This document shows positions 4,504-36,636 of a stretch of 64,000 nt of DNA, piece after piece. Location of the stretch: contig PLZJ01000002.1 of NCBI GenBank assembly GCA_003152105.1, positions 685,140 to 749,139 of the forward strand. The letters are read 5' to 3'. Under the pieces are notes generated by a model that was not told the origin of the DNA, did not search any database, and saw nothing but the letters and a program-made list of their open reading frames with translations. A program made the position numbers and the translations under genes. Source of the DNA: Candidatus Levyibacteriota bacterium. Its GTDB lineage: Bacteria; Patescibacteriota; Microgenomatia; Levybacterales; UBA12049. Positions within the stretch are counted from its first letter, which is position 1. Each line of letters starts with the position of its first letter.

Positions 4504-5301
4504 ATGAATCAATTAAGACTTTGTACATGGAATATTAATTTAGGTGAAGATAGAGATCAGCTTATAAAATCTATGCAAGGCCCATCTGATTTTAAAAATT
4601 TAGATGTAATGCTTTTACAGGAAGCATCAGTTAAAAGTATGGACGACGCAAAGTTAATTGCTGAAAAGTTAGGAAAAGATTTTGTGCATCACCAAGTGTA
4701 TGTCCAAACACCCACATTTAAATGGTATTCGACGAAAAGAAAAGTAAAGGGAATACCTCAATCAAGTGCATTTATATGGAATAAAAAGACATTTATAATG
4801 AAATCAATTGATGAGTTTTTACTTCCTCCCTACAATAATAAAAAAATGTCACCATATGGCAAAGCAATATATCATTTATCTTCCACGCAACAACGAAAAT
4901 GTATCGTTATCGAAGGGATGTTTAATGGGAAATCAATTAGAATATATAATGTACACTTTGATGTTTTGGGGCCTGTAACAAAAACTAAACAGCTTGAAGA
5001 AATTCTTCGAGATAGTACTAATAGATCTATCGTAGACACTGAAATTCTTGCAGGAGATTTTAATACATATCGATTTTTAAAAAGACCAACTTGGAAGAAA
5101 TTAAATGCAATAACAAAACGTGATGGATTTATCGAATTAACTAGTGATATTAGATGGACTTTTGCCGATAAGAAAATTCCAATAAAGCAAAAATTGGACG
5201 CAATTTTTATTAAACATAAATTACCGCTTCACTTTAATTCATGGGCACTTGATATTATAGGGTCTGACCACTTACCTGTTTTTGCAAATATAGATTTTTA
5301 A
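4504..5301 (+). CDS. Endonuclease/exonuclease/phosphatase (EEP) family protein
   Basis: LCTWNINLGEDRD at the N-terminus, LLQEASVK, C-terminal GSDHLPVFANIDF (EEP catalytic His/Asp motifs). Confidence 0.75.
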   Translation: MNQLRLCTWNINLGEDRDQLIKSMQGPSDFKNLDVMLLQEASVKSMDDAKLIAEKLGKDFVHHQVYVQTPTFKWYSTKRKVKGIPQSSAFIWNKKTFIMKSIDEFLLPPYNNKKMSPYGKAIYHLSSTQQRKCIVIEGMFNGKSIRIYNVHFDVLGPVTKTKQLEEILRDSTNRSIVDTEILAGDFNTYRFLKRPTWKKLNAITKRDGFIELTSDIRWTFADKKIPIKQKLDAIFIKHKLPLHFNSWALDIIGSDHLPVFANIDF

Positions 5302-5309
5302 TTATATGT

Positions 5310-5717
5310 ATGTTTAAAAAAAAAGATCTTGATCCTCTGTTTGTACCGCTTTATAACGCTTTCGAAGGTAAATTATTGGGAACAAATTGGTTAAAGCAAT
5401 GCGTCTGCGAAACAATCTATAAAATGCCAATTGCAATACAGTCATTTATAACCCAAAACTGTTGGTTTATGGGTTCAATTGATGATGCATGGGCATTTAC
5501 CTTTACAGGAAATGATTTAAAAAACCAACATTTAATTTTTTTAAGTGATGATTTGCTTTTACAAGAAAAAGATCAAATAACATTTACCATTGCACATGAA
5601 ATTGGACATGTAATTTTAAAACATCGTAATTCGACTCTTGTTAAACAATCAAAAAATGAAATTAATAGACAAGAAAAAGAAGCAGATGATTTTGCTAAAG
5701 AATTTGTTTCATTATAG
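5310..5717 (+). CDS. Small HEXXH zinc-metallopeptidase-like protein (ImmA/IrrE / DUF955-like)
   Basis: HEIGHVILKH followed about 25 aa later by EKEADDFAKEF, matching the ImmA/IrrE HExxH...E.EAN.FA pattern. 135 aa. Confidence 0.45.
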   Translation: MFKKKDLDPLFVPLYNAFEGKLLGTNWLKQCVCETIYKMPIAIQSFITQNCWFMGSIDDAWAFTFTGNDLKNQHLIFLSDDLLLQEKDQITFTIAHEIGHVILKHRNSTLVKQSKNEINRQEKEADDFAKEFVSL

Positions 5718-5776
5718 TTGCAGCCTAGGATTTGCTTAGCTTGTAATCTAGCCTCGATTTCTGTACAATAAAAGCT

Positions 5777-10184: not shown

Positions 10185-10430
10185 ATGGCACATACAAAAT
10201 CACAAGGATCAGTTAAGGGAAATCGAGATTCAATTGCAAAACGCTTAGGTGTAAAGCTTTATGGCGGTCAACAAGCAATTGCTGGTAATATTTTAGTTAG
10301 ACAAAGAGGGACTAAATTTTTCGCAGGAAAAGGAGTCGGAATGGGAAGAGATTATACGTTATTCGCATTACAAGAAGGACAAGTTAGCTTTAAACAAAAA
10401 CTAGGTAAAAAAATTGTAGAGGTAAAATAA
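10185..10430 (+). CDS. rpmA: Ribosomal protein L27
   Basis: [29 protein letters not shown] is the canonical L27, with no N-terminal propeptide. Confidence 0.9.
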
Positions 10431-11260
10431 TGGAAGAAAATCAAGACAAACTTTACGAACTTGACCCACACATGCTTCAAGCAAATCCTCTTCAACCTCG
10501 AGGAATTATTTCACCAGAATCGTTAAATGATTTAGTTGAATCAATCAGAGAACAAGGTATTCTTGAGCCGATCGTAGTAGCTAAAACTCCTGCTGGATAT
10601 CAAATTATTGCTGGAGAAAGAAGATGGAGAGCTGCAAAAATTCTCGGGTTATCAAAAGTTCCTGTAGTCGTTAAAGAAACAACTCCACAAGGCATGCTTG
10701 AAATGTCAATTGTTGAAAACGTTCAAAGAGAAGATTTAAATCCAATCGAAAGGGCACAAGCATACAAAAGATTAATAGATGAATTTGGACTTGGCACAAA
10801 CGAGGTAGCGAAACGAGTAGGAAAAAGCGCCCCAACTGTTTCAAATACAATTCGATTATTAACCCTTCCTGACGCTATTAAAGACGCGTTAGTTGCAGGA
10901 GTAATTACTGAAGGACATGTACGTCCTCTAATATCTTTAGGCGATCCTAAATTAATGCTTGAATTATTTAAGAAAATTTTACGCGATAACGCAACGGTGA
11001 GACAAACAGAAGAATGGGCTAGAAAAGCAAAATCTGAACAAGAAGGACAAAATGATAGACAACCAAAAATAAAAGAACGTTTATATATCCCTGAACAAGA
11101 TGAAATGGCGAAAACCATACAAGATTCTCATCAATTATCAAATGTCAAAATATTTCAATCCAGAAGCCTTGCGAGGATAGAATTGATTTTAAAAGGTGAT
11201 GTCGAGCACACCACTCCAAAAATTAAAGAGCTAGTAGAGTTATTAAAAGGAAACAATTAA
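10430..11260 (+). CDS. parB: ParB/Spo0J-like partition protein
   Basis: ParB N-terminal box IVVAKTPAGYQIIAGERRWRAAKILGL; HTH GTNEVAKRVGKSAPTVSNTIRLL. Start overlaps the rpmA stop (TAATG). Confidence 0.75.
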   Translation: MEENQDKLYELDPHMLQANPLQPRGIISPESLNDLVESIREQGILEPIVVAKTPAGYQIIAGERRWRAAKILGLSKVPVVVKETTPQGMLEMSIVENVQREDLNPIERAQAYKRLIDEFGLGTNEVAKRVGKSAPTVSNTIRLLTLPDAIKDALVAGVITEGHVRPLISLGDPKLMLELFKKILRDNATVRQTEEWARKAKSEQEGQNDRQPKIKERLYIPEQDEMAKTIQDSHQLSNVKIFQSRSLARIELILKGDVEHTTPKIKELVELLKGNN

Positions 11261-13919: not shown

Positions 13920-14972
13920 ATGACTATAGTTTTCTTTTCAAGATATTTTTATCCTCACATAGGTGGCGTGGAAAAACATGTGCTAAACATAAGCAAAGAA
14001 CTAATTAAAAAAAAGCATAAAGTAATTGTTATTACAGAGAAAAGTAATTTCAAAGACAAAGAAATTGAGCAGTATAAAGATATAACAATTTATAGAATTC
14101 CAATAACTACTTCTGAAAAAAGAAAAAAATTTTTAATATGGAAATGGTTATTGCTACACAGAAGTATTATTAGCGATTCAGATATTGTACATGCACATGA
14201 CGTATTTTATTGGTATCTACCATTTAAAATGATATATCCAAGCAAAAAAGTATATATGACAATTCATGGTTATGAGGGTAATAAAATGCCCACCAGAAAA
14301 TCTAAAATTTCTCATAAAATTAATGCAATTCTTTCTTCTGGAAACATTAGTATAGGTTCATTCTTGGAAAAATGGTATGGCATAAAAGCAACATATATTT
14401 CTTATGGTGCGGTAGCAGTACAAGATAAGAAGCCTATCATTTCTTATCCTAAAAAAGGAGTAATAAAAGCATTATTTATTGGAAGATTAGAACCTGAGAC
14501 CGGAATTATGGAATACTTAAAGTTTATCGATTTAATGAGAAAAGATAATATTTCAATTACTATTATTATTGCAGGAGATGGATCATTACGAAATGAAGCA
14601 ATAGAATATGTTAAGGTAAAAAAAATAAAAGCAACATTTTTAGGATTTGTAAATGATCCACAAAAATATTTTAGTAAGGTTGATATTGTGTTTACTTCAC
14701 GATATCTTGGTATATTAGAGTCACTGCTTGGAAAAAAAAGGGTATATGCTTTTTATAATAATGCAATTAAAAAAGATTATCTGCAAATGTCATCGTTTTC
14801 TCAATTTATAAATATCGCCAAATCTATAAAACAAATGAGGTTGTTGCTTTTAAACGATAAAGCAAATGAAAATCTCTATAAAGCATCTATAAATCAAGGA
14901 TATGCATTTGCTTTAGAACAATCATGGCAAAAGTTAACGCTTCTTTATATAAAACTTTGGGGAAAGAAATAA
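13920..14972 (+). CDS. Glycosyltransferase family 4 (GT-B, group 1)
   Basis: N-terminus TIVFFSRYFYPHIGGVEKHVLNISKEL, typical of GT4; 350 aa. Confidence 0.65.
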   Translation: MTIVFFSRYFYPHIGGVEKHVLNISKELIKKKHKVIVITEKSNFKDKEIEQYKDITIYRIPITTSEKRKKFLIWKWLLLHRSIISDSDIVHAHDVFYWYLPFKMIYPSKKVYMTIHGYEGNKMPTRKSKISHKINAILSSGNISIGSFLEKWYGIKATYISYGAVAVQDKKPIISYPKKGVIKALFIGRLEPETGIMEYLKFIDLMRKDNISITIIIAGDGSLRNEAIEYVKVKKIKATFLGFVNDPQKYFSKVDIVFTSRYLGILESLLGKKRVYAFYNNAIKKDYLQMSSFSQFINIAKSIKQMRLLLLNDKANENLYKASINQGYAFALEQSWQKLTLLYIKLWGKK

Positions 14973-16691
14973 ATAGGTATAAAATACAAAAAATAACAAT
15001 ACCGCAATCATACATGTGATGCTAATTATTTGAGAATCTGTTCTGATAAACGTTTGATTATACTCAATACTTACAAGATATAAACCTGCTGGCGCATTAA
15101 AGAATATAATTCCGGGATTCCTATTATTTTGATAACTAATTGGAATTGGTTTGCTATTTATTAGTACTTCCCAATTGGGAAAATAGAGAGTATTTTCTTC
15201 GATATATAAAGGAGTAGCTGCGTTTACTATATACTCATGAATTGTTGAAGTTCGATTTATTTGTTTGATCGTAGCGATACCCTTTAATATATAAAGAGGC
15301 ATTTTAGGGATGTTTTTTTTCCAAACGTTTTTTTGATCAACCCACTTGGGTGCTGATTGAATGTTTCCTTCGCCTTGTATGGTACTAAGTGGAATATTAG
15401 CTCGAAGTGTAGTATCAGTTATTGCTCCAATTGTTCTTCTGTTTCCCCAATTAAATATTGTAATGAGTATGGTAATAACACAAAGAATTACAATAAATGA
15501 TTTGTTTTTATTAACTTTGACTACTATTCCTGCAATTAACGAAGTACAAAGTGTAATTCCTGCTAAGAATCTGTAGGAAAATTGAATATGTTTGAATAAT
15601 GGAAGAATACTATAAATTGGCTGTGAAATAGGGAGCATCATGACAAAAAGTACAAAAAATGAGAGTATCGCAAACAGGTATAAGAGATTTGTTTTTTTGA
15701 TTTTACCTTTAACTAAAAGATATAGTGAATATAAAACAATAAATAATTGAGTATAACCAATAATATAAGAAAGTTGTCCCTTTGGTCCTTGAAATAATAG
15801 TCCATACTTCCAGTTCGAATAAATAAATTCCCAAAAGTTTTGATATGAAACACTAACTACGTTTGATTTTAATGTGAATTGCAATTCATAGAGTAGCGGT
15901 AACCAGTAAAATAATGATAAAAGCAAACCAATTGTTAATGAGAAAAATGCATATGTTAAATATTTTCCATCTCTCTTTTTAGAATATATAAATAATTCAT
16001 ATAGTATCAGTATAGGAAAAACTATTATTGAAACAGCTTGATGAGATAAAATAAGTGCTGCCACTGAGCATGATAAAAATAAGAGATGAATAATACTAGT
16101 TTTTATAGATAATTTTTTCAAAAAATAAAAAACGAAGGGAGATATAGAAAGTGCGGTAACCTCTCCAATATCAACTCTAAAATGCATGTCGACTAAATGA
16201 TAAGGAGCGTACATATAGAATAGAGAGGATGCTATTCCAGACATTTCTCCTAACTCTTCTTTAATCCACAAATACATTCCTATACCAGAGAATATAAAAG
16301 TCATGGCAAGAAGTAGCTTAATGCTTGTAATAAAAGAAAATCCGATCAAATGAAAAAAACTAATCAAATAAAATGGTAAGGGGTATGAAAAATTAAAAAC
16401 TGGATAGCCATATGTAGCATTTAGTAAACCACCCCAAAGTGGAAATATATGTCCTTCTAAAAGTGAAGAATAGAAACTCATTGCCTCATAAACATGCAAA
16501 GAAAGATCTCCACTTTCATATGTTCCAGATCTAAATAAACTTGTAAGTGGCAACAATGATATTACTATCACATAAACTAAAGGATGTATTTTTTTATTTG
16601 GGAGTAATTTTTTAAAAAGAAGGAATCCACTTGCAAGAATAATGACTGAAATGCAACTTACGATAATTAACTTAGTTGATGCTGGAATCAT
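14934..16691 (-). CDS. Polytopic membrane protein, putative GT-C glycosyltransferase (YfhO / COG5617-like), paralogue B
   Basis: GDLSLHVYEAMSFYSSLLEGHIFPLWGGLLNATYGYPVFNFSYPLPFYLISFFHLIGFSFITSIKLLLAMTFIFSGIGMY aligns residue-for-residue with 12021-13811. Same C-terminal architecture. Confidence 0.5.
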   Translation of the reverse strand: MIPASTKLIIVSCISVIILASGFLLFKKLLPNKKIHPLVYVIVISLLPLTSLFRSGTYESGDLSLHVYEAMSFYSSLLEGHIFPLWGGLLNATYGYPVFNFSYPLPFYLISFFHLIGFSFITSIKLLLAMTFIFSGIGMYLWIKEELGEMSGIASSLFYMYAPYHLVDMHFRVDIGEVTALSISPFVFYFLKKLSIKTSIIHLLFLSCSVAALILSHQAVSIIVFPILILYELFIYSKKRDGKYLTYAFFSLTIGLLLSLFYWLPLLYELQFTLKSNVVSVSYQNFWEFIYSNWKYGLLFQGPKGQLSYIIGYTQLFIVLYSLYLLVKGKIKKTNLLYLFAILSFFVLFVMMLPISQPIYSILPLFKHIQFSYRFLAGITLCTSLIAGIVVKVNKNKSFIVILCVITILITIFNWGNRRTIGAITDTTLRANIPLSTIQGEGNIQSAPKWVDQKNVWKKNIPKMPLYILKGIATIKQINRTSTIHEYIVNAATPLYIEENTLYFPNWEVLINSKPIPISYQNNRNPGIIFFNAPAGLYLVSIEYNQTFIRTDSQIISITCMIAVLLFFVFYTYLFLSPKFYIKKR

Positions 16692-16717: not shown

Positions 16718-17626
16718 ATGAAAACATCATTTATCGCTACAATTTTTAATGAAGAAAATAATATTAAAGATTTAATAACATCACTTTTAAATCAAACTAA
16801 AAAAATTGATGAAATAATATTTGTTGATAATAATTCTACTGATAAAACGAGAGAGATTATTAAATCTTATAAAAATATTAAGTTACTGAAATATAGTGGA
16901 AATAGATCAAAAGGAAGAAATTTCGGAATTGAGCATGCAAGTGGAGATATAATTTTAGTATCCGATTCAGGATGCATTTTAGATAAGAATTGGGTAAAAA
17001 ACATAACGAGTGGATTTAAAAATGAAGATATTTCAGTAGTATCGGGTTATTATTTGCCGATTTGTAACAGTATTTTTCAAAAATGTCTAGCAACATATAC
17101 CTGTGTTATGCCAGATAAGTTAAATGAGAATACCTATCTTCCATCATCTCGATCCATAGCATTTAAAAAAAGTGCATGGAAAACAATTGGTGGATATCCC
17201 AAAAACCTCTCAACATGTGAAGATTTAATTTTTGCGGTAAGGTTAAAGAAGCATAACTTTCACTTCATTTTAGTAAAAGACGCATTAGTATATTGGCAAC
17301 AAAGGAAAAACTTACTTTCGGCATTTTCACAATTTTTCTCGTATGCAAAGGGAGACGGTAAGGCCAGATATGTAAGAGCTCAAACGCCATATTTATATTT
17401 ACGATATATTGTCGCAGTATTATTGTTTTATTTTTCGTTTAAAGAGCATTTTCTCACTCTATTTATTGTTTTAGGATCACTATATTTTTTTTGGGCAATA
17501 TATAAAAATTATGTCTATATAAAATCTCTATATGCAATTATATATTTACCTTTGCTGCAGTTAACATCAGATATTGCTGTATTGGCAGGGATGACAGTTG
17601 GACTTTTCTTGTCATTTACTAATTAA
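16718..17626 (+). CDS. GT2 glycosyltransferase with C-terminal TM helices (GtrB/ArnC/DPM-synthase-like polyprenyl-phosphate sugar synthase)
   Basis: IATIFNEENNIKDLITSLLNQTKKIDEIIFVDNNSTDKTREI is a GT2 N-terminus. The last roughly 80 aa form 2-3 hydrophobic helices. Confidence 0.65.
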   Translation: MKTSFIATIFNEENNIKDLITSLLNQTKKIDEIIFVDNNSTDKTREIIKSYKNIKLLKYSGNRSKGRNFGIEHASGDIILVSDSGCILDKNWVKNITSGFKNEDISVVSGYYLPICNSIFQKCLATYTCVMPDKLNENTYLPSSRSIAFKKSAWKTIGGYPKNLSTCEDLIFAVRLKKHNFHFILVKDALVYWQQRKNLLSAFSQFFSYAKGDGKARYVRAQTPYLYLRYIVAVLLFYFSFKEHFLTLFIVLGSLYFFWAIYKNYVYIKSLYAIIYLPLLQLTSDIAVLAGMTVGLFLSFTN

Positions 17627-18648: not shown

Positions 18649-19887
18649 CTAAGCATTTGATCTAAATATAGTATAGGTGATGTAGAGAGTATATGTTTGA
18701 GAAATTATATATGAAATGAGTACTGCATACGCAACACCATTAAGATTAAATAATTTTGAAAATGGAAATAATAATATAATCAGCAGTAAGAAATTTATAG
18801 AATCTGTTATGGTCAGTACTTTTGGTTTGCCTAGAGCTAATAAAAAGGGAGCAAATGGACCCATTAGTGATCTAAAGCAACCATAAACTGCTAATATTTG
18901 AAGAATTGGTGCAGCATTTAACCATTTATTACCCAGTACGACTACAATTATTTCTTTTGGAAAGGCTATGAAAATAAAACTTAAAATAATGGTCGGAATA
19001 GATATAAATAGAATATGCTGTTTTAGAGAATTTTTCATTAATAATTTATCATTTTGTATATGTGCATATATTGGGAATGCAATTTTTGAAATATTATCAG
19101 TAATTTCTGAGAATGCTATATTGCCAATCTTAAATGACATATCATAAATTCCAAGGACTCCTGTATTAAAAAACTTTCCAATAAATAGATTGTCAATCTG
19201 AGTCATTAAATAGGAAGAAATTCCTCCTATTGTTAACCATTTACTAAAACCGAGTAGTTTCTTAACTAAACTAAATGAGATTGGATGTGAAAAATCTGAT
19301 TTTATTACTACGTATGATAATAAAGTTTGAAAAATCGTTCCTATGAGAAGACCAAAGACAAGAGATAAGGCGTTGCGATATATAAGAGCAAGCAAGATCG
19401 TAAAAAATGCTGTTATAAAACTTGATATAAATTGATAAAGAAATTCGTTTTTGAATTGAAACTTTTTATAGAAATAGAGTAAATAGGGATTTTGAATGCT
19501 ATTAATAAGAGGAATAAAAGAAGCAATCAAAAGTAAATTAAACAAAACAGGATTGTTAAAAAATGAAGCTAAGAATTTAGCAATTACAATATTAATTAAT
19601 GTTAAGCATACTCCACGGACAAAATTTATAGAAAGTATAGTTTTTGCATATGGATGAAGTTCTTCTTGAAAATGGATAATAGCGTATTCAAGTCCAGTTT
19701 CTGATATAGCTTCTAATAAATTTATTATACTAGTTACGATTGCGAATAGCCCGAAATCTGATTGTGTTAGAATTCTTGCTAAAATTATAATTCTAATAAA
19801 ATCTAATCCTCTAGAACTAAATTGTAAAATTCCCATCCAACTAGTACCCTCAATAAATCTTTTTTTAACATTAATTTTATTTGCCAT
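18649..19887 (-). CDS. Wzx-type oligosaccharide flippase (polysaccharide biosynthesis protein, MOP superfamily)
   Basis: 412 aa, about 12 TM. Start GTSWMGILQFSSRGLDFIRIIILARIL is typical of the Polysacc_synt/Wzx family. Confidence 0.6.
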   Translation of the reverse strand: MANKINVKKRFIEGTSWMGILQFSSRGLDFIRIIILARILTQSDFGLFAIVTSIINLLEAISETGLEYAIIHFQEELHPYAKTILSINFVRGVCLTLINIVIAKFLASFFNNPVLFNLLLIASFIPLINSIQNPYLLYFYKKFQFKNEFLYQFISSFITAFFTILLALIYRNALSLVFGLLIGTIFQTLLSYVVIKSDFSHPISFSLVKKLLGFSKWLTIGGISSYLMTQIDNLFIGKFFNTGVLGIYDMSFKIGNIAFSEITDNISKIAFPIYAHIQNDKLLMKNSLKQHILFISIPTIILSFIFIAFPKEIIVVVLGNKWLNAAPILQILAVYGCFRSLMGPFAPFLLALGKPKVLTITDSINFLLLIILLFPFSKLFNLNGVAYAVLISYIISQTYTLYITYTIFRSNA

Positions 19888-19929: not shown

Positions 19930-21045
19930 ATGTCAAATAAGCTACGAATTGCCTTTTTCCATGAGCTTCCTGAAGGTGGTGCAAGGAGTGCCACAAATAG
20001 TTTTGCTAAAGAATTAAAAAAAAAGCATACTGTAGATTTGTTTTATATTGACGAAAAAAAAGACATTAGTGAACACAGAAACTATAGCAAGGCTTATTTC
20101 TATAAATTTATTCCCTTACAATGGAAAGGAAAAAATTGGAAAATCAGATTTTATAAAGATTCTATCGAATTATATAAAAATTGGAAACTTCATAAACAAA
20201 TAGCACAAACAATTAATAAACAAAAATATGATGTAATTTTTGTTAATGCCTCAAAGTTTATAGAATCACCTTTTTTGCTTAGATACTTAAAAACTAAATC
20301 AGTATTTTATTTGCATGATCCTTATTACCGAATAATTTATGATAAAGCATTAACATTTCCAAGTGACATTTCACAACTACGAAAACTTTACGAAACTGGT
20401 AATAGATTAATTAGAAAATTCATTGATAAAAAAAATATTTCAAAAGCGACATATGTTTTTTCTAATTCAAAATTTGCTAGTAGGCAGTTTTTAAATATTT
20501 ATCATAAAAATAGTGTAGTTAAATATATTGGTATTGATACTAGATTCTTTATTCCTAAAAATATGAAAAGAGATATCGACGTCTTATATATCGGGTCAAG
20601 AAGCAGTATTGATGGGTACGATTTATTAATTCAGATATTAAAATTGTTACCTAAAAATAGTAATGTAAGAATGGTTTTGCATGAAGATGGAATGAAGAGT
20701 CAATCAGAAATACGTACGCTTTATCAGCGATCTAAAATAGTAATTTGTTTAGCAAGAAAGGAACCATTTGGACTTATTCCCTTGGAAGCAATGTCTACTC
20801 AAACACCTGTCATTGCTTTAAAAGAAGGAGGTTATGTTGAAACAATTAAGGATAACGAAACAGGATACTTAGTATCTCCTAACGTCAAGCAAATTGCTAA
20901 TCGGATAACATATCTTTTATCACATAAGGCAAAAAGATTTGAAATGGGTGTTGCTGGTAGAAAATGGGTATTGCAAAATTGGAATAATATTATGCGTGGT
21001 AAGGAACTCGAAAAAGGATTAGTAACTATAGCATATGAAAAATAA
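19930..21045 (+). CDS. Glycosyltransferase family 4 (GT-B)
   Basis: C-terminal EX7E-type motif LARKEPFGLIPLEAMSTQTPVIALKEGGYVETIKDNETGYLV. Confidence 0.7.
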   Translation: MSNKLRIAFFHELPEGGARSATNSFAKELKKKHTVDLFYIDEKKDISEHRNYSKAYFYKFIPLQWKGKNWKIRFYKDSIELYKNWKLHKQIAQTINKQKYDVIFVNASKFIESPFLLRYLKTKSVFYLHDPYYRIIYDKALTFPSDISQLRKLYETGNRLIRKFIDKKNISKATYVFSNSKFASRQFLNIYHKNSVVKYIGIDTRFFIPKNMKRDIDVLYIGSRSSIDGYDLLIQILKLLPKNSNVRMVLHEDGMKSQSEIRTLYQRSKIVICLARKEPFGLIPLEAMSTQTPVIALKEGGYVETIKDNETGYLVSPNVKQIANRITYLLSHKAKRFEMGVAGRKWVLQNWNNIMRGKELEKGLVTIAYEK

Positions 21046-23281
21046 AGAAATTTCAATTATTTACATCTATTACAATACTCCTACTGAAATTAAAAATTCA
21101 CTTGCTTCAATTAAAAATGCAATTGGAAATATAACATATGAAATAATAATTATTGATAATCATTCAAGTGAATTTCTTAAAAATAACAACAAAAACATCC
21201 GTATTATTAGAAATAAATCAAATAAAGGATTTGGAAGAGCAATAAATCAGGCAGGAAAACTAGCTAAGGGCAACTTTTTATTATTAATTAATCCAGATAC
21301 GCTATTTCACAAAAATAGCATATTCTACTTATATCAAAAAATTAAAAACGACGAAAACATTGGAGCAATTGGCCCCATGCAAGTGTCTTTAGATAATAGC
21401 ATGTTACCAAGCATTAATGGATATCCAACTATACTAAAATCAATATTTTCATTTTCTATTCTTAACATACTTTTTAAAAACAATTCCTTTTCGAGAGCAT
21501 ATTGGTTACCAGGTGTACAAGGAACTAAACAACTTGTCGTACCTGTTATTGGTGGGGCATGCATGCTGATTCCCAAAAAGATTTTTAATCAAGTAAATGG
21601 CTTTGATGAAAAGTTTTTTATGTATTTTGAAGAATCAGATTTGTGTAAACGAATTAATCAGTTGGGCTATAAAATTATATATTATCCTAAAGCTAAAATT
21701 ACTCATCTTGTTGGAATGAGTAATAAAGATAAAACAAGTATTGAATCTATCTTTGAAAAAAGTAGGTATTATTACTTGAAAAAAAATTATGGAAATACAA
21801 AAGCTCTGCTAGCCGAAGGATTTATTAGATCTACGAAATCTAACAATATATTACTTGTTCTAATTTTACTTATTTCCTTATTTTTAAATTTATATAAAAT
21901 TTCAACTCAACTGATGTTTTTTGGGGATTTTGGCAGAGATTATTTAGTGGCTAGAGATATGGTTATTAACCATACTATACCATTAATTGGTATTGAATCA
22001 TCTGTTAAGTGGTTACATCAAGGTCCTCTTTCTATTTATTTTATTGCCTTATCTTTTCTGATCGGTAATTTTTCACCAATTGCTCCCGCGATTTTTTATG
22101 GAATAGTTGGCAGTTTGACAACTCTGTTGGTTTATATTCTAGGTAAAAATTTATGCAATAGTAAAGTTGGTTTACTGGCAAGCTTATTTTATGCAACTTC
22201 TCCTTTGATTACCGTAAGTATGAGAATGCCATATCATACTTCTTCAATACCATTTTTTGCATGCCTCTTCTTTATTTCCATGTTTAAAGTCATAAAAGGT
22301 AGCTATAAAGTATTACCAATTGCAAGTTTTTTACTTGGAATCTTATTCTTATTAGAATTATCTAATGGTGTACTTTTTTTACTATTTCTTATATATATTT
22401 ATTGGTATAAATTACGATTCCCTAAAAATATAATAAATAAATCTATTTTTACTTTTATACTTGGAATTTCTCCTTTTATCTTGTATGACCTTATGCATCA
22501 TTTTATTCAAATAGGCGGTTTTATATTATGGGTTATTAACAGAACGCGATTATTCTTCGGTTTAACTACAAACGGCAACGAAACAACATTACATGCAGGA
22601 AGCGCTATACTTACCATATGGCAAGAACTTAATAGGATATTCTTTCCTATAAATCATATCTTGGCAGATGTTTTACTTTTATCAATAATTTTTATTGTCT
22701 TTAAATTAAGGAAAGAGATTTTATTTAAAAAAGATACAATTATCATACCTATTATTTGGCTATTTGTTCCTCTAACTGCCTATGTTATTCATTCTGCTCC
22801 AGGAACCGCATATTTTCCTTTATTATTTCCTTCTATATCTTTACTACTTGGATATTCAATCTATTATTATTCCAAAATCAGTAAAATAGTGATACTATTT
22901 TTTATTACAATTTGTCTTATAAATGGAGTGTATACAATTTACAACCATTATTTTTTAGATTCTTCTTCATTTATTGGCTCTAATGCTCCTGGTTGGAATT
23001 ATGGTATGGGTATTTCAATTGATGAACAAGAAATAATTGCCAATAAAGTTGTAACGGATGCAGATCACAATGCCTTTCAATTCACTGGAGGCAAGGATGT
23101 GGCAACTTTTCCTTCAGACTTAGATAATTATAAATATTTAATAATATATCATCATGGTTTACTTAATAATAACGCAAAATTAACATATACTTTGTACAGA
23201 GCCTCTACAAAAATTAAAACCAATCAACATATAATATTTAAAACTAAATTTTACACCTTAACAAAATATGAAAGAACTTAA
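21035..23281 (+). CDS. Fusion protein: N-terminal GT2 (rhamnosyltransferase-like GT-A) + C-terminal ArnT/PMT_2-like GT-C membrane domain
   Basis: Residues 1-260: ISIIYIYYNTP...IIIIDNHS...GGACMLIPKK...FMYFEESDLCKR, GT2 with ED motif. Residues about 270-748: about 12 TM, FGDFGRDYLVARDM...WLHQGPLSIYF, equivalent to the ArnT DE..Y...KPPL.YW loop. Confidence 0.6.
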   Translation: MKNKEISIIYIYYNTPTEIKNSLASIKNAIGNITYEIIIIDNHSSEFLKNNNKNIRIIRNKSNKGFGRAINQAGKLAKGNFLLLINPDTLFHKNSIFYLYQKIKNDENIGAIGPMQVSLDNSMLPSINGYPTILKSIFSFSILNILFKNNSFSRAYWLPGVQGTKQLVVPVIGGACMLIPKKIFNQVNGFDEKFFMYFEESDLCKRINQLGYKIIYYPKAKITHLVGMSNKDKTSIESIFEKSRYYYLKKNYGNTKALLAEGFIRSTKSNNILLVLILLISLFLNLYKISTQLMFFGDFGRDYLVARDMVINHTIPLIGIESSVKWLHQGPLSIYFIALSFLIGNFSPIAPAIFYGIVGSLTTLLVYILGKNLCNSKVGLLASLFYATSPLITVSMRMPYHTSSIPFFACLFFISMFKVIKGSYKVLPIASFLLGILFLLELSNGVLFLLFLIYIYWYKLRFPKNIINKSIFTFILGISPFILYDLMHHFIQIGGFILWVINRTRLFFGLTTNGNETTLHAGSAILTIWQELNRIFFPINHILADVLLLSIIFIVFKLRKEILFKKDTIIIPIIWLFVPLTAYVIHSAPGTAYFPLLFPSISLLLGYSIYYYSKISKIVILFFITICLINGVYTIYNHYFLDSSSFIGSNAPGWNYGMGISIDEQEIIANKVVTDADHNAFQFTGGKDVATFPSDLDNYKYLIIYHHGLLNNNAKLTYTLYRASTKIKTNQHIIFKTKFYTLTKYERT

Positions 23282-25844
23282 AATTTTTATTGGCATTTTA
23301 TTACTTATAATTATTTTATCTTTTTCTTTGCCAGGTATTTTTCTACCCACAGATATATTAAATAATTATCCAAGTTTTAGCACAACAAAATGGGATAAGC
23401 CCCAAAATTCACTTCTTTCTGATGCAGTATTTCAGTTTGAACCATGGCGTGTATATACAAAATCGCAATTACAAAACGGCACATTTCCTTTATGGAACAA
23501 TTTAAACGGATCCGGTACACCGTTTTTCGCAAATATGATTTCAGCAATCTTATTTCCTTTAAATTTTATTTATTATATTTTGCCCACCGCGCCTTCGTTA
23601 TATTTAATCAGTTTTTTGAAGCTGTATTTTCTTGGACTTTTTAGTTATTTATATTTTAAAAAAGTGCTGAAGAAAGAAAAGTTTGCATTTATGGGAGCAG
23701 TTGCTGTGTCGTTCTCTGGATTTCCTATTCTTTGGTTATTATGGCCTCAAACTAATGTATACATGTTCTTCCCTTTGTTGCTATATATCACCGAAGAAAT
23801 AAGAGAACAACCGAAAAAATATTATAAATGGTATTTATTTCTATCAATAGTATATTTTTTAGCTGTACTTGGTGGACATCCAGAAACACTTTTTGATATT
23901 TTACTGCTACATGTGTCCTACTTACTTTTTAGGTTATGGAATCAAAAAAAACAATTATTTATTTCGATCGGTTTTGTATTTTTAGGAATTATTACTTCTG
24001 CTATTCAAATACTTCCATTTATTGAATATATTTTACATAGCGATATAGTGCAGCAACGAGGATTACAGACTTATACATATTATTTACCTTTAAAAAGCAT
24101 AATAATGCAAATTTTTCCATTTATACTTGGAGCTCCACAACTTAATTTTTATAAACCAATTGCTTCGTTTACTAATTTTCAAGAGGTAATGAGTGGCTAT
24201 GTTGGTGCAATAGTATTAATCTCTGCGATCTATGTTACACGTAAGTATTTTTCAGATAATTTAGTTAAATACTGGACTATTATGATAATACTAATATATG
24301 GAATTGCATATAATATTTATCCATTTAAAATGCTTTCTTATTTGCCTATATTACATAGTAATGCAAACCAACGATTAACAGGATTTGCATCAATTGGATT
24401 TATATTCTTAGCATGTTATGGATTTTCTAAAGTTGATAAAAACAAGATAAATATTCCATTTTCTTTCCAAAAATTATTTTACTTGATCTCAATAGTTGTT
24501 AGTTTACTATTGGTATTTTTACCGAAATATTTTCCAAAACATATAATAGGAAATAGTACCAATATTGCATTTGTATACTTTTTGCAAAATCATATTGCAT
24601 ATATTTTCTTAACAACATTTTTATTTTTACAATTAGTTCTATTTACTAGAAATAAATATATAGTTAAATACAAATTTGAATTAGTTATATTATTAATTTT
24701 ATCTCAGACTTTGTTTCTACTTTGGAATTATAATCCAATTACTGCTAAGAGTGTATATTATCCAAGAACGCCTTTAACTCAGGAGTTGCAACAAATACCA
24801 AGTGGTAAAGTTATTGAAATCGGAAATCCTTCCTTGGCTCCAGATAGCAATTTAGCATATGGAATATCAGGAGCAGAGAGCTATGATGCAATTGACGTTA
24901 AATCATATAAGACGACTTTAAATGCATATTTTCCAATTAGAAACATATGGGATAAAGTAGATGAAACAAATATAAATGCTTTCCAAAAGTTAGGTATTAA
25001 ATATATCTTGAGTGATTTTGATATAAATTTGAAAAGACAAATCTATCAAGGTAGAAGCGATACTATTTTACCTCCTCTTAGTCATTCTAGGCCAGCTTCG
25101 TATTCAGTTATAAATAGTATTCATACATTAAGCGGTATACGGGTGCTTTTTGCCACATTTAATAGATCGAATAATTGTATTGTTACTATTACATTTAAAG
25201 ATGATAAAACTTCACAAACACTACTTCAAAAAAATATTTATTGTTCAAATACTAGAAACTACATGTACTATTTTGTATCAACAAATAATATTACTTTAAA
25301 TCATGATAACTTGAGAATTGTTCTTCAATCTAATAGTGATAATACTCAAAATAATGTAGCGCTTGTTGGAGATAAAGGTGGTTACCCTTATATCGAGTTA
25401 TTTTCTCCTCCATCTAAGCAGGTGTACAAAAAGTTGTGGGAACTAAATGATGAATATATATGGTCAGTGCCAGATGCTAATTTTATAGTATTTGATGGAA
25501 AAAATATTTTGAAACGAGAAAGTTCTAATACCATTCAGATTGCAACTAACTATAACCATAATGCATCGATAACTGCAAAAGTAGTTAACTATCCAGGTTG
25601 GAAAGTTAGTATAGATGGAAAGACCGGTTTAGTAAATAAAAATGACTTATTTCTGTCTACAGAAGTTCCAAAAGGAAAACATGTAATACTATTTTATTAT
25701 GCTCCAATGTCATTCTACATTGGACTAATAGTTACAATAGTAATTTTGGTAAGTATTGGATTTTACATATTAGTTAGAGAAACTTACAGTATTAAAATCC
25801 TATGTTATAATCTCATAAGAACTTTCCAAAAAAAACGAAAATAA
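23268..25844 (+). CDS. YfhO-family polytopic membrane protein (putative GT-C glycosyltransferase)
   Basis: 858 aa. About 14 TM, then a roughly 300 aa extracytoplasmic domain and a final TM. FPLWNNLNGSGTPFFANMISAILFPLNFIYYIL matches the YfhO loop motif, and the architecture matches B. subtilis YfhO (about 860 aa). Confidence 0.5.
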   Translation: MKELKIFIGILLLIIILSFSLPGIFLPTDILNNYPSFSTTKWDKPQNSLLSDAVFQFEPWRVYTKSQLQNGTFPLWNNLNGSGTPFFANMISAILFPLNFIYYILPTAPSLYLISFLKLYFLGLFSYLYFKKVLKKEKFAFMGAVAVSFSGFPILWLLWPQTNVYMFFPLLLYITEEIREQPKKYYKWYLFLSIVYFLAVLGGHPETLFDILLLHVSYLLFRLWNQKKQLFISIGFVFLGIITSAIQILPFIEYILHSDIVQQRGLQTYTYYLPLKSIIMQIFPFILGAPQLNFYKPIASFTNFQEVMSGYVGAIVLISAIYVTRKYFSDNLVKYWTIMIILIYGIAYNIYPFKMLSYLPILHSNANQRLTGFASIGFIFLACYGFSKVDKNKINIPFSFQKLFYLISIVVSLLLVFLPKYFPKHIIGNSTNIAFVYFLQNHIAYIFLTTFLFLQLVLFTRNKYIVKYKFELVILLILSQTLFLLWNYNPITAKSVYYPRTPLTQELQQIPSGKVIEIGNPSLAPDSNLAYGISGAESYDAIDVKSYKTTLNAYFPIRNIWDKVDETNINAFQKLGIKYILSDFDINLKRQIYQGRSDTILPPLSHSRPASYSVINSIHTLSGIRVLFATFNRSNNCIVTITFKDDKTSQTLLQKNIYCSNTRNYMYYFVSTNNITLNHDNLRIVLQSNSDNTQNNVALVGDKGGYPYIELFSPPSKQVYKKLWELNDEYIWSVPDANFIVFDGKNILKRESSNTIQIATNYNHNASITAKVVNYPGWKVSIDGKTGLVNKNDLFLSTEVPKGKHVILFYYAPMSFYIGLIVTIVILVSIGFYILVRETYSIKILCYNLIRTFQKKRK

Positions 25845-26568: not shown

Positions 26569-26895
26569 ATGAATACCACTCCTTATTACACAAAAATAAG
26601 ACGTTTGTTTGCAAGCTTTAAAAAAAACCTACGAATTAAAATAAATAAATATAACTGGGAATTTCATTTTTATGTTTTTGTTTTCTCTCTATGTTTCTCA
26701 GTTAGCGTTTTTATAATACTTATGATTAGTTTGCATTTATCTTTTAAGATGCCAAATACTACTGCGATAAATTGGTTTACCGTTCATAAGTATCCAAAAC
26801 AACAAGATATATTTTATTTTATATTCGGATTCCCTTTTATATTAGTACTGTCTATTATTATTTGGATGTTAACATTATGGGTAAAAAAGAGATAA
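26569..26895 (+). CDS. Small membrane protein, hypothetical
   Basis: 108 aa, 2-3 hydrophobic helices, embedded in the glycosylation operon. Confidence 0.35.
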   Translation: MNTTPYYTKIRRLFASFKKNLRIKINKYNWEFHFYVFVFSLCFSVSVFIILMISLHLSFKMPNTTAINWFTVHKYPKQQDIFYFIFGFPFILVLSIIIWMLTLWVKKR

Positions 26896-29384: not shown

Positions 29385-30158
29385 CTAACGTATAAGTAAT
29401 AATAGCCACGATTTGGGAGTATGGAATAGTCTGTTGTTAAGCAATGCTAGACAAAACCAGGGAGTATAAGAAAAGATTGATTGAAACAACTTAAAATTAG
29501 TTTTACCGTGCTGTCTATCTTTCCAAATTGTTGGGATTTCATATATTTTATATTCTAAGCAGTGGGCTTTAGCAACAATTTCTAACGTAACGCTAAAGCT
29601 AGACACGCTTTTTAATGAAATATTATGTATTAATTCTGAAGAATACATCTTATAGCTATTTGTCGGATCACTAGTATTAATTCCAGTAAATAATTGTAAT
29701 AATCTTCCTGCAAGTTTTGGGAATCCAACTTTTAAAGGTGCATTCAATTCTTGTTTTCCTCCTTTTGAATATCTTGAAGGACAGACTACGTCTGCTGTTT
29801 TAGGAATTAAATTAAGCATTTCTTTAATTTGCGTCAAATCATCACATAGATCAGCCATTGTCACAAGTATTTTAGAGCCTGAGGAGTATTTAAAACCTGT
29901 CCGTATTGCTCCAGATGGGCCTCTATGAATCGAGTTTTTTAAAATTACCAGTTGTGGATATATGCGTTTTAGATTTTTTAATACAGGTAATGTTGTATCG
30001 TTATCCAAATCATAAATAACAAGAATTTGATTTTTAACAGTAATATTTTTATCTAATAACCTAAGGGTTTCTTCTATATTTGCAGCTTCATTATATACGG
30101 GTATAATAACTGATAAGTCATATTTTGAATTTTTAGTAGTTTTCTGTATTTTCTTCAT
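29385..30158 (-). CDS. GT2 glycosyltransferase (Dpm1/polyprenyl-phosphate sugar synthase-like)
   Basis: DLSVIIPVYNEAANIEETLRLL, DLDNDTT and a hydrophobic C-terminal tail. Confidence 0.65.
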   Translation of the reverse strand: MKKIQKTTKNSKYDLSVIIPVYNEAANIEETLRLLDKNITVKNQILVIYDLDNDTTLPVLKNLKRIYPQLVILKNSIHRGPSGAIRTGFKYSSGSKILVTMADLCDDLTQIKEMLNLIPKTADVVCPSRYSKGGKQELNAPLKVGFPKLAGRLLQLFTGINTSDPTNSYKMYSSELIHNISLKSVSSFSVTLEIVAKAHCLEYKIYEIPTIWKDRQHGKTNFKLFQSIFSYTPWFCLALLNNRLFHTPKSWLLLLIR

Positions 30159-34937: not shown

Positions 34938-35924
34938 ATGATTTCTTATCCAATAGTTGTAACCACAATATTTCCTCCTTCAAAGGCTATTAAGCTATAC
35001 GTTAAGTACAAACATAAATTAATCGTTATCGGAGATAGTAAAACCCCGTCTAACTGGAAATATAAGAATTGTGATTATTATCCAATAGCTTCTCAACATA
35101 AAATGTTTCCTACATTTTCGAAAATAATTCCATTAAATCACTATGCAAGAAAAAATTTAGGATATTTAATTGCAATGAAGGCATGTAGTAGTTTTATTGA
35201 AACTGATGATGATACATTTCCGTATGATCATTTTCCTAAGTTAATTAATGGAAAAACTATAACTTTGATTAAATCAAAGGAATTATTTTTTAATGCTTAT
35301 AAATATGCAACTTTTGGAAAAACAACTGTTTGGCAAAGGGGATATCCATTGCAACTGATATTAAATAAATCCAATTTTCTTGAAAAAAGCTTGTTATCAA
35401 ATAATTATGAATTTCCGATTCAACAGGGATTAATAAACGGAGACACAGATGTTGATGCAATATATAGATTAGTAAACAATGAAAAAATAACTTTTAAAAG
35501 TAATTGTAATTTTTCAATTGATTCAGGAGTGTATTCTCCAATAAATTCACAGAATACTTTTTGGAAAAGAAATGCCTTCTTATTTATGTATCTGCCTAGT
35601 TTTGTTTCACCACGAGTCACGGACATTTATAGAGGATATATTGCACAAAGAATGTTAAAAGAAATAAATGAATACGTTTCTTTTACTGCACCCTCTACTT
35701 ATCAAATAAGAAATCCGCATAATTATATTAAAGATTTTAAAGACGAAATGGATTTATATCTTTCAATTGAGGAATTTGTAACTTGTTTAGACAAAATGAA
35801 ACTTAATGGATCGATTGAAAATAAATATTTAATGCTATTTAAGCAGTTAAACAAATATGGTTTTATCATTCAGGATGAAATAGATGCAGTTTCTCATTGG
35901 ATTAAGGAAGTTTCTAAGCTTTAA
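34938..35924 (+). CDS. Hypothetical protein, possible GT-A glycosyltransferase (DUF288/STELLO-like)
   Basis: IVVTTIFPPS...LIVIGDSKTP... then ETDDDTF, a DxD-like motif. Soluble, 328 aa. Family assignment from memory only. Confidence 0.3.
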   Translation: MISYPIVVTTIFPPSKAIKLYVKYKHKLIVIGDSKTPSNWKYKNCDYYPIASQHKMFPTFSKIIPLNHYARKNLGYLIAMKACSSFIETDDDTFPYDHFPKLINGKTITLIKSKELFFNAYKYATFGKTTVWQRGYPLQLILNKSNFLEKSLLSNNYEFPIQQGLINGDTDVDAIYRLVNNEKITFKSNCNFSIDSGVYSPINSQNTFWKRNAFLFMYLPSFVSPRVTDIYRGYIAQRMLKEINEYVSFTAPSTYQIRNPHNYIKDFKDEMDLYLSIEEFVTCLDKMKLNGSIENKYLMLFKQLNKYGFIIQDEIDAVSHWIKEVSKL

Positions 35925-36636
35925 CTGGGTAAGTAGATTTATCTAGAATTTCACGAACAAAAGTTTTTAAATTTAAATATCCAGTAGGTATAGATTTAAA
36001 ATTCGTATCTCCAAATAGTCGTTTTCCTTCAATGGAAGGAAATTCATAAAATTTCAATTTATATTTCAATCCTCTTATGACCATTTGGCAATCTATAGTT
36101 CTATCTTCTGTATCAAGATGTAATTTGTCATATGCTAGAATGTTAATTCCCCGAAATCCTTGTACTATTTCTGAAACATATCCGTTTTTATTCCATAAAG
36201 CATTAATGATAATCGCAAAACAAATATTAAACCATTTTCGAGGTTTTAAAAAGGTATCGTCTTCTTCATTCTGACCACCTTTAATCATTCGAGAAGGAAT
36301 TACGAATTCATACCCTAACCGTAATGCATCTGCAATTTTACCAATATCTTCTGGGTTTTCATTACCGTCAGGATGATAAAGTATCATGGCATTTGTGGAG
36401 CAATGTGATCTTGCTTCAAAAACTGCAGCACCTAAGCCACGTTTTTTTTGTGTAAATACCTTGATTCCCTTTTTTTTGTAAAATTCGATTGTTCCATCTG
36501 TAGAATTTCCATCAATTACATATACCTCGTCAACAGATTTTAATGGAATTTTGGGAAACAAAATTTCTGATGCTTTTCTTTCATTCATTGCTAGTATTGC
36601 TAAGCTCACTTTTATTTTTTTTGTAGGTAATTTCAT
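35914..36636 (-). CDS. GT2 glycosyltransferase (Dpm1-like)
   Basis: SLAILAMNERKASEILFPKIPLKSVDEVYVIDGNSTDGT. Confidence 0.65.
   Translation of the reverse strand: MKLPTKKIKVSLAILAMNERKASEILFPKIPLKSVDEVYVIDGNSTDGTIEFYKKKGIKVFTQKKRGLGAAVFEARSHCSTNAMILYHPDGNENPEDIGKIADALRLGYEFVIPSRMIKGGQNEEDDTFLKPRKWFNICFAIIINALWNKNGYVSEIVQGFRGINILAYDKLHLDTEDRTIDCQMVIRGLKYKLKFYEFPSIEGKRLFGDTNFKSIPTGYLNLKTFVREILDKSTYPVKA

Follow-up and report, generated by a model that had tools for sequence, protein, structure and literature searches.

GT2 and GT-C glycosyltransferases are both textbook enzyme kinds. To our knowledge, the envelopes of Patescibacteria are almost unstudied. In the mycobacterial arabinogalactan pathway, the cytoplasmic GT2 enzymes GlfT1 and GlfT2 act first and the GT-Cs AftA and AftB then act outside, all of them being separate proteins, and in M. 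tuberculosis Ppm1 a synthase is joined to a membrane domain. PMC10821137 describes systems in which a GT2 and a GT-C are co-encoded, as they are here (GtrA/GtrB/GtrC, CsbB/GtcA/YfhO, GacI/J/K/L and PgfS/PgfM). The same paper describes GacJ-GacI fusions. In these co-encoded systems the GT2 is a polyprenyl-phosphate-sugar synthase and a separate protein.

The window (the whole 64,000-nucleotide stretch of a Candidatus Levyibacteriota genome that was analysed) encodes a protein with three parts: an N-terminal GT2/GT-A domain, a GT-C membrane domain of the PMT_2 type and a small domain at the C terminus (Table 1). The first-pass annotation had read this gene as a single polypeptide joining a GT2 to a GT-C, and the Pfam annotation by which it proposed to check this agrees, both PF00535 and PF13231 being above their cut-offs. 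The four motifs that it quoted were all located in the protein: GGACMLIPKK (aa 173-182), FMYFEESDLCKR (aa 195-206), GDFGRDYLVARDM (aa 297-309) and HQGPLSIYF (aa 328-336). The frame overlaps the upstream GT4 gene by 11 nt and the downstream YfhO-like gene by 14 nt. Its AlphaFold model has a pLDDT of 89.5 and a pTM of 0.87; a cluster look-up of the protein returned no name.

Table 1. Features of the fusion gene and its surroundings (window coordinates; aa numbers refer to the encoded protein)
Feature	Coordinates	Strand	Basis
Wzx-type flippase (Polysacc_synt_3)	18649..19887	-	Pfam E 2.9e-62
Upstream GT4 (GT-B) gene	19930..21045	+	Pfam; 11-nt overlap with fusion ORF
GT2 (GT-A)::GT-C fusion protein	21035..23281	+	ATG start, 748 aa, without internal stop
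GT2/GT-A catalytic domain, predicted cytoplasmic, aa 1-232	21035..21730	+	
Two conserved helices, aa 233-252 and 254-266, GT2-to-TM1 linker	21731..21838	+	DSSP of model, alignment
GT-C membrane module, aa 269-636, ~13 helices	21839..22942	+	
First loop after TM1, aa 290-331	21902..22027	+	Invariant columns, 41-sequence alignment
C-terminal alpha/beta domain, aa 655-748	22997..23278	+	DSSP of model, per-segment identity
Downstream YfhO-like polytopic membrane protein, 858 aa	23268..25844	+	PF09586
Stand-alone GT2, candidate donor maker for GT-Cs	29385..30158	-	NCBIfam matches, aa 14-228
Second stand-alone GT2, AglJ / Dol-P-hexose-transferase type	35914..36636	-	NCBIfam TIGR04182

An A7 homopolymer (21780-21786) lies inside the junction DNA, where an assembly error or a frameshift could have fused two genes. 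Our results refute this explanation and leave it next to no probability. Along aa 240-300, 41 relatives of 32-49% identity align with 61 columns per 61 residues and a one-residue indel only. Because these diverged sequences are collinear through the junction, the frameshift around 21780-21900 against which the first-pass annotation had cautioned is excluded, and the identical protein (P0001) is present on three contigs. Both complete domains, collinear across the junction, were found in 210 of the 262 relatives retrieved, and the family numbers at least 210 sequences when clustered at 90% and over 100 clusters at 50%. The GT2::GT-C fusion is no artefact and has been conserved across hundreds of ultra-small (CPR) bacteria. 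Its earlier description as an uncommon architecture holds for the studied systems, no GT-A::GT-C fusion being described in the literature searched, but not for this GT-C subfamily, where it is dominant (210/262). Longer matches beyond Patescibacteria, in Roseiflexus (L065), Chloroflexota (L066), Bryobacterales (L052) and PVC (L068), were rejected as fusions; they are stand-alone GT2s of 294-350 aa or tandem GT2 genes.

The N-terminal domain is a complete GT2 with an ED motif, as first proposed. PF00535 (Glycos_transf_2) matches aa 7-121 (E 9e-17, 61.9 bits against a cut-off of 23.3), PF13641 matches aa 53-227 (35.9 bits against 27) and PF02709 (Glyco_transf_7C) matches aa 173-224. The domain has a GT-A fold with a DXD-type metal/nucleotide motif and a catalytic acid, and its invariant residues are N42, N63, G65, N71, N86-(P87)-D88, G174, D191, E200, D202 and H224. 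N86-(P87)-D88 is the DXD equivalent and E200/D202 the ED-type motif. In the alignment of 41 sequences, GT2 and linker together (aa 1-268) contain 17 invariant residues, and the GT2 part has a mean identity of 41%. The linker is collinear, with 39% mean identity and invariant S243 and K250; its two segments are probable membrane-interface helices, and could act like the interface helices of DPMS and GtrB.

The membrane module has a polytopic GT-C fold. PF13231 (PMT_2) matches aa 329-483 (E 1e-8, 36.0 bits against a cut-off of 26.1), and nearly all relatives carry a precomputed PF13231 annotation. The first-pass annotation had predicted a C-terminal 12-TM domain resembling ArnT/PMT_2. The PMT_2 match and the loop motifs support the resemblance, but the AlphaFold secondary structure suggests about 13 helices, and beyond them the C-terminal portion holds an additional alpha/beta domain of about 95 aa. 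This last domain, presumably extracytoplasmic, is the least conserved segment (26% mean identity). In the 41 sequences the GT-C half has 18 invariant residues, including D298, the WLHQGP and PYHT motifs and E441, and its mean identity is 42%, compared with 41% for GT2. Given these 17 and 18 invariant residues and the level of identity, both domains are, on sequence grounds, real and under selection. The first loop after TM1 contains invariant D298, 12 residues past TM1, together with A306, P316, S323 and W326-L327-(H328-Q329)-G330-P331. Since GT-Cs of the ArnT/PMT/OST type have an N-in topology, this is presumed to be the extracytoplasmic catalytic loop. Orthology of the GT-C half to ArnT (GT83) was considered and rejected: no ArnT-specific model is among the NCBIfam matches of the fusion protein and its 41 family members, and neither ArnT nor any other PDB GT-C chain matches this half at the sequence level. 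The top 50 Foldseek matches in the PDB are all GT-A, none of them for the membrane half.

The fusion state varies among relatives. The studied locus has GT4 + GT2::GT-C; L084/P0146 and P0187 have GT2 + GT4::GT-C, as given by Pfam for P0146 and P0187; L015 has a GT4, a GDSL-like protein and a lone GT-C. In P0146 and P0187 an orthologue of our upstream GT4 is fused to the same GT-C (45% identity to aa 1-348 of P0146). In L001 a GT2 is fused to Wzx, which shows that these genomes commonly join proteins of one pathway. All four related loci have a GT4 upstream of the fusion, and three of them share Wzx (GT2-fused in L001), methyltransferases and Wzy_C; in L002-L004 and L084 the Wzx gene is kept beside GT4 and the fusion.

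Of the claim that a YfhO-like gene comes next, the overlap and a PF09586 match above cut-off (33.0 bits against 28.5) stand, but that match covers only the C-terminal part of the model (positions 651-835 of 835). This protein also has a weak DUF6541 match and no NCBIfam match, and a protein of 861-919 aa comes next in L001 and L015. Two DPMS-like stand-alone GT2 genes lie 6-13 kb downstream of the fusion. Both resemble polyprenyl-phosphate-sugar synthases along the full domain. The nearer one resembles PgfS, ArnC, PpgS and Dol-P-hexose transferase, with all matches below curated cut-offs, and the farther one matches TIGR04182 over aa 10-225 (E 5e-21). A GT2 of about 250 aa is found directly 3' of the fusion in L002-L004; its orthologue in the window (41300-42070, 42% identity), checked as a donor synthase, matches SunS and MftF-like families in its N-terminal half only. 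A Pfam scan of 29 ORFs in the island (12-47 kb) detected no GtrA (PF04138) flippase, and the scanned ORFs yielded no initiating phosphoglycosyltransferase.

We think that the protein is probably a bifunctional glycosyltransferase acting on both faces of the membrane, encoded in a large surface-glycan island of the Wzx/Wzy type, since GT4, GT2 and GT-C occur in different states of fusion with one another, two stand-alone synthase-like GT2s are present in the window and the context is conserved (GT4 upstream, Wzx, methyltransferases and Wzy_C). In the cytoplasm, the GT2 would lengthen a glycan, most probably one attached to a polyprenyl-diphosphate lipid, with a nucleotide sugar as its substrate, in the way of WbbL/GlfT-type rhamnosyl- or galactofuranosyl-transferases. 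The two conserved helices would tether it to the first helix of the GT-C module, whose conserved loop with D298 is predicted to face outwards. There, the GT-C could take a sugar or a whole glycan off a donor linked to lipid phosphate and place it on the exported polymer or another surface acceptor, this donor coming probably from the separate DPMS-like GT2s encoded nearby and not from the fused GT2. We hypothesize that the main role of the fusion is to provide a membrane anchor for an otherwise soluble transferase, and that it would also keep members of one pathway side by side in a fixed ratio.

In the model of the first-pass annotation, the product of the fused GT2 is a polyprenyl-phosphate monosaccharide, like that of ArnC, GtrB or Dpm1; the GT-C half of the same chain would take it as donor after flipping, so that the protein supplies itself. 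This is unlikely. The GT2 lacks whole-domain similarity to such synthases: its matches to the DPMS/GtrB/ArnC type cover positions 3-125 only, in the generic N-terminal half, and hhalign aligns it with the DPMS-like GT2 of the window over aa 3-152 only. Glycan-elongating GT2s score clearly above DPMS, GtrB and ArnC, and the closest structural neighbours are not polyprenyl-phosphate-sugar synthases. None of the 41 family members matches the ArnC, PpgS and Dol-P-hexose models, and the PgfS model matches weakly in three. Moreover, the orthologous GT-C exists without this GT2, alone or GT4-fused, and dedicated DPMS-like GT2 genes are present in the window. The covalent link would offer no direct channel, since the product would in any case have to pass through the bilayer. 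The fused GT2 looks like an ordinary glycan-chain builder and not like a maker of the GT-C donor, a class assignment based on relative similarity; for this reason, and because every NCBIfam match of the domain is far below its curated cut-off, it may instead be a divergent polyprenyl-phosphate-sugar synthase.

Both halves could also act on one lipid-linked intermediate, the GT2 helping to build a polyprenyl-diphosphate-linked oligosaccharide and the GT-C transferring it en bloc, after Wzx flipping, to protein or cell wall like an oligosaccharyltransferase. We find this improbable: the protein lacks a WW pair and with it any WWDYG-type motif, and its C-terminal domain of ~95 aa is small beside the far larger soluble domains at the C terminus of oligosaccharyltransferases. 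Pfam assigns the module to PMT_2 and not to STT3, and ALG12, Pmt4 and ArnT, all users of monophosphate-sugar donors, score equal or higher. There is a slim chance that the protein is a trans-bilayer assembly unit, the GT2 handing its lipid-linked product directly to its own membrane module, which would help to carry it across and use it once outside. Such a unit would free part of the pathway from the need for a separate flippase. The high whole-chain pTM is a hint that the two domains are fixed relative to each other. Slimmer still is the chance that the GT-C half has lost catalysis and is a mere membrane anchor or scaffold for the GT2; fusion to either GT2 or GT4 would suit anchoring, but its 18 invariant residues, its conservation equal to that of the GT2 and the persistence of stand-alone versions of ~480-500 aa argue against it.

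As a two-sided enzyme, the protein would unite in one conserved chain an inner transferase that uses nucleotide sugars and an outer one that uses lipid donors, an arrangement undescribed in the literature that we found. This uncharacterised family offers a concrete handle on surface-glycan assembly in genome-reduced Patescibacteria, and the GT2::GT-C, GT4::GT-C and GT2::Wzx fusions may serve as Rosetta-stone evidence for one membrane complex. For annotation, a GT2 adjoining or fused to a GT-C should not automatically be called a lipid-sugar donor synthase.

The fusion shares PMT_2 (PF13231, clan GT-C) with ArnT/PMT/ALG12-type GT-Cs, at about 10% sequence identity, but none of these enzymes has its N-terminal GT2. 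That domain shows whole-domain sequence and structural likeness to rhamnosyltransferase (TIGR01556), GlfT1/GlfT2, MftF, K4CP and WrtF, with the NPD (DXD-like) and EExD acid motifs, the C-terminal His and the Glyco_transf_7C region in common. However, it is no orthologue of any of them, all matches being far below family cut-offs, and unlike these elongating GT2s it is covalently tied to a GT-C module. With mycobacterial arabinogalactan the likeness is one of pathway logic only. Like the GtrA/GtrB/GtrC group of systems, the island has an adjacent YfhO-like gene and DPMS-like GT2 genes, but the fused GT2 is not GtrB-like, and a GT-C and a Wzx-type flippase are present. In GacJ-GacI and Ppm1 a cytoplasmic GT2 is likewise membrane-bound through a polytopic fusion partner; there, however, the GT2 is a lipid-sugar synthase, and it is joined to a small activator or Lnt-like domain instead of a GT-C.

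The open reading frame at 21035-23281 (+) starts with ATG and runs for 748 codons in which internal stops are absent, within a window of 26-36% G+C. Pfam finds a glycosyltransferase family 2 domain and a PMT_2 domain in this one frame, both above cut-off (see table), confirming the single ORF joining a GT2 to a GT-C that the first-pass annotation had described; the peptide motifs quoted there are all present in the protein. The upstream GT4 gene (19930-21045) shares 11 nt with the fusion ORF and the YfhO-like gene that follows (23268-25844, 858 aa) shares 14 nt, the latter overlap being as annotated. From these overlaps, the three genes appear to form a single translationally coupled unit.

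The fusion recurs in relatives. A word-indexed search over 5.8 billion proteins (E <= 1e-5) gave 251 matches, the best 120 of which were almost all 730-766 aa long, showed 32-49% identity and carried both PF00535 and PF13231. An exhaustive HMMER scan (E <= 1e-30), run against 1.84 billion representatives clustered at 50% identity, returned 1040 proteins, and most of the best 150 aligned in a single stretch over both halves. When 262 retrieved relatives were sorted using separate profiles for each half, 210 had complete GT2 and GT-C domains together, about 25 were fragments compatible with the fusion, 17 had the GT-C without this GT2 and 2 had the GT2 only. Public databases name these proteins generically ('glycosyltransferase', 'GT2 family glycosyltransferase'). 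Full-length matches among GTDB species representatives belong to Levybacteria/Levyibacteriota, Microgenomates, Gottesmanbacteria, Chisholmbacteria and unclassified Patescibacteria. Further ones come from MAGs (TPA assemblies) titled 'uncultured Gammaproteobacteria bacterium' (e.g. L005, L007-L012) with Levybacteria-type fusion loci, a title that is probably a placeholder or error. Outside the Patescibacteria-type group the searches turned up no fusion; the relatives there were GT2s of 294-350 aa standing alone. Some retrieved proteins are longer: in P0135 (1092 aa) the GT2 precedes two stretches that match the GT-C profile, and the giant proteins P0231, P0240, P0241, P0246, P0247 and P0256 (1206-2840 aa) contain 3-7 tandem matches to the fused-GT2 profile, some partial.

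An AlphaFold2 model of the fusion protein, obtained from a 41-sequence alignment, is confident (mean pLDDT 89.5, pTM 0.87). Residues invariant in this alignment are spread evenly along the protein, with 17 in the GT2 and linker (N42, N63, G65, N71, N86, D88, G174, F184, D191, F198, E200, D202, G211, H224, S229, S243, K250) and 18 in the GT-C half (D298, A306, P316, S323, W326, L327, G330, P331, P390, P399, Y400, H401, T402, E441, L442, W499, A592, N630). ArnT, PMT and OST-type GT-Cs have a cytoplasmic N-terminus and their first loop outside. By analogy, the N-terminally fused GT2 would therefore lie in the cytoplasm, with the nucleotide sugars, while D298 and the C-terminal domain would face outside.

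The GT2 half resembles glycan-elongating GT-A enzymes. Its scores are higher against WrtF (22.4), K4CP (22.2), B4GALNT1 (21.9), PcManGT (21.9), GlfT2 (21.4, 260 residues aligned), GalNAc-T1 (21.1), TarP (20.0) and RmlT (20.0) than against the polyprenyl-phosphate-sugar synthases DPMS (16.5), GtrB (15.4) and ArnC (14.7), and no such synthase appears in the Foldseek top 50. Across its whole domain the family profile matches K4CP, a chondroitin synthase (E 2.7e-20, positions 6-216), as well as many ppGalNAc-transferases (7-229). With DPMS (3-114), GtrB (3-109) and ArnC (4-125) the match is limited to the generic nucleotide-binding half, also in a single-sequence search. Among NCBIfam models, MftF and rhamnosyltransferase TIGR01556 are matched by 41/41 family members, HpsN and EpsD by 40/41, GlfT1 by 13/41 and PgfS weakly by 3/41, and ArnC, PpgS, Dol-P-hexose transferase and AglJ by 0/41; all these matches fall far under curated cut-offs and speak to type, not orthology. 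In hhalign the fused-GT2 profile aligns with the stand-alone GT2 of locus L049 over the whole domain (E 9e-87) and with that of L084 over aa 2-255 (E 7e-31), and with the window's DPMS-like GT2 only over aa 3-152. Two stand-alone GT2s of the window give whole-domain matches to synthase models: 29385-30158 (-) to PgfS, ArnC, PpgS and Dol-P-hexose transferase, and 35914-36636 (-) to AglJ (E 5e-21). Judging from these comparisons, the GT2 half does not appear to be of the lipid-sugar-synthase type, on which the mechanism in the first-pass annotation hinges, and the earlier proposal of a donor synthase with channelling is not supported. A 302-aa GT2 at 16718-17626 (+), with hydrophobic peaks at aa 234 and 271, has a topology typical of GtrB/ArnC-type enzymes and MftF- and EpsD-like family matches; it is a possible third lipid-sugar synthase candidate.

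The assignment of the C-terminal half to GT-C held up. It scores against ALG12 (26.0, 398 residues aligned), Pmt4 (24.7), ArnT (24.1, 401 residues), AglB (23.9), STT3B (21.5), Pmt2 (20.8), ALG9 (19.4), AftB (18.9), AftA (18.4) and PglB (17.4), and therefore has the GT-C fold. No two tryptophans (WW) are adjacent in the fusion protein, which therefore lacks a WWDYG-type motif. Among the other polytopic ORFs of the window only 36702-38225 matches its GT-C profile, weakly (E 2e-6). This GT-C is a distinct subfamily.

The same activities are also joined differently. In P0146 (878 aa; L084:3393-6029) and P0187 (859 aa) an orthologue of the GT-C half, 38% identical over aa 250-747, is joined to a GT4 of GT-B fold; the window's orthologue of that GT4 is the gene upstream of the fusion (45% identity). 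The gene directly upstream of P0146 encodes a free-standing GT2 that is of the fused GT2's subtype and has the FFIYFEESDFCMR motif. Locus L015 has a GT4, a GDSL-lipase-like protein, a 489-aa GT-C alone and an 861-aa membrane protein. Three arrangements thus exist: [GT4][GT2::GT-C], [GT2][GT4::GT-C] and [GT4][other][GT-C]. This would be expected for partners in one membrane-bound complex, any soluble member of which can be tethered, and would not be expected of an obligate donor-maker/donor-user pair. We know of no polyprenyl-phosphate-sugar synthase that is a GT4. Locus L001 (GCA_964425075.1) encodes a 725-aa fusion of GT2 and Wzx-type flippase (Polysacc_synt; 4703-6880) in the corresponding island. 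Joining partners of one pathway thus seems to be common among these small genomes.

The fusion gene lies in a glycan island of about 35 kb (12021-47035). Polytopic GT-C-like or Wzy-like proteins are unusually dense there (at least 10, plus the Wzy_C protein); at least 9 are additional to the fusion, several matching PMT_2, PTPS_related, YfhO or TMEM260-like, and those at 26862, 38686, 40000 and 42046 have no Pfam match. The STELLO family is known mainly from plants and other eukaryotes. A GT4 precedes the fusion in 4/4 related loci (L001-L004). In L002-L004 a stand-alone Wzx lies before it, a small GT2 (~250 aa) and a PMT_2 protein directly after it, then Wzy_C and a Glucodextran_B-type gene (unannotated in L004). 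In L001 a 919-aa membrane protein follows and Wzx is itself the one fused to GT2. Relative to L002-L004, some 18 kb of additional glycan genes separate the window's fusion/YfhO pair from its small GT2 and PMT_2 pair (41300-42070, 42046-43497), suggesting insertion or expansion; the small GT2 shares 42% identity with the gene in L003. Upstream of the island, the window (10430-11260, 13920-16691) and L001:1-3863 share the gene order ParB, GT4, PTPS_related membrane protein.

Domains of the fusion protein (aa) and genes of the glycan island (window nt)
Feature	Position	Strand	Remarks
Glycos_transf_2	aa 7-121		Pfam, 61.9 bits (cut-off 23.3)
Glyco_tranf_2_3	aa 53-227		Pfam
Glyco_transf_7C	aa 173-224		Pfam
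PMT_2	aa 329-483		Pfam, 36.0 bits (cut-off 26.1)
GT-A domain	aa 1-232		AlphaFold2 model
Two conserved helices	aa 233-266		AlphaFold2 model
First membrane helix	aa 269-286		AlphaFold2 model
Loop with invariant D298 and WLHQGP motif	aa 290-331		AlphaFold2 model
About 12 more membrane helices	up to aa 636		AlphaFold2 model
Small alpha/beta domain	aa 655-748		AlphaFold2 model
GT4 genes	13920, 19930
GT2 genes	16718, 29385, 35914, 41300		16718: two C-terminal hydrophobic peaks
Acyltransferase_3	17635
Wzx-type flippase	18649
Methyltransferases	25846, 28471
C-methyltransferase	30155
NDP-sugar epimerases/dehydratases	31433, 33885
UDP-glucose dehydrogenase	32535
STELLO-like GT	34938-35924	+	328 aa, PF03385, E 4e-11
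Polytopic GT-C-like/Wzy-like proteins	12021(-), 14934(-), 21035, 23268, 26862, 36702, 38686, 40000(-), 42046, 43589
Wzy_C protein	45133
Glucodextran_B/Ig-domain protein	46310

We think that the fusion protein is probably a two-sided bifunctional glycosyltransferase. The cytoplasmic GT2 would extend a lipid-linked glycan from a nucleotide sugar and the GT-C would work on the outer face with a lipid-phosphate-linked donor, for which separate DPMS-like GT2s are the most likely source; the role of the fusion would be membrane anchoring and co-assembly. That the fused GT2 instead makes the donor for its own GT-C half as a self-supplying unit, as the first-pass annotation had it, we consider unlikely. 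Even then the product would still need flipping over the bilayer, and therefore the covalent link by itself would create no channel. There is also a small chance that the protein is a builder plus en-bloc transferase, both halves acting on the same lipid-linked oligosaccharide. The enzymes matched by the membrane half include users of monophosphate-sugar and of diphosphate-oligosaccharide donors alike, so neither donor nor acceptor of the GT-C is readable from them.

A catalytically dead GT-C, serving as anchor only, seems very improbable. Identity to the query averages 41% in the GT2 and 42% in the membrane module (39% in the linker, 26% in the C-terminal domain), and purifying selection is thus comparable on both catalytic halves. 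An artefactual fusion has a negligible probability. The DNA for the inter-domain linker contains an A7 homopolymer (21780-21786), which is harmless because the junction is collinear in relatives and the exact 748-aa protein is present on three contigs, one a 1.14-Mb ENA scaffold. The frameshift or missed stop that the first-pass annotation had considered was not found: the frame is open, and residues 240-300 form 61 columns with an indel of one residue only in the 41-sequence alignment.

Both halves are of well-known kinds, a GT2 of GT-A fold and a GT-C of PMT_2 type, and neither half is orthologous to any enzyme that has been characterised. The literature searched, of incomplete coverage, yielded no description of a GT-A::GT-C fusion, which is absence of evidence only. 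We conclude that this architecture is real, conserved and uncharacterised, in bacteria that are themselves poorly understood. Of its two nearest functional analogies, one is mycobacterial arabinogalactan synthesis, where GlfT is followed by Aft, as in the inside-GT2/outside-GT-C logic proposed here. The other is the three- and four-component glycosylation systems, whose component proteins are separate (PMC10821137).
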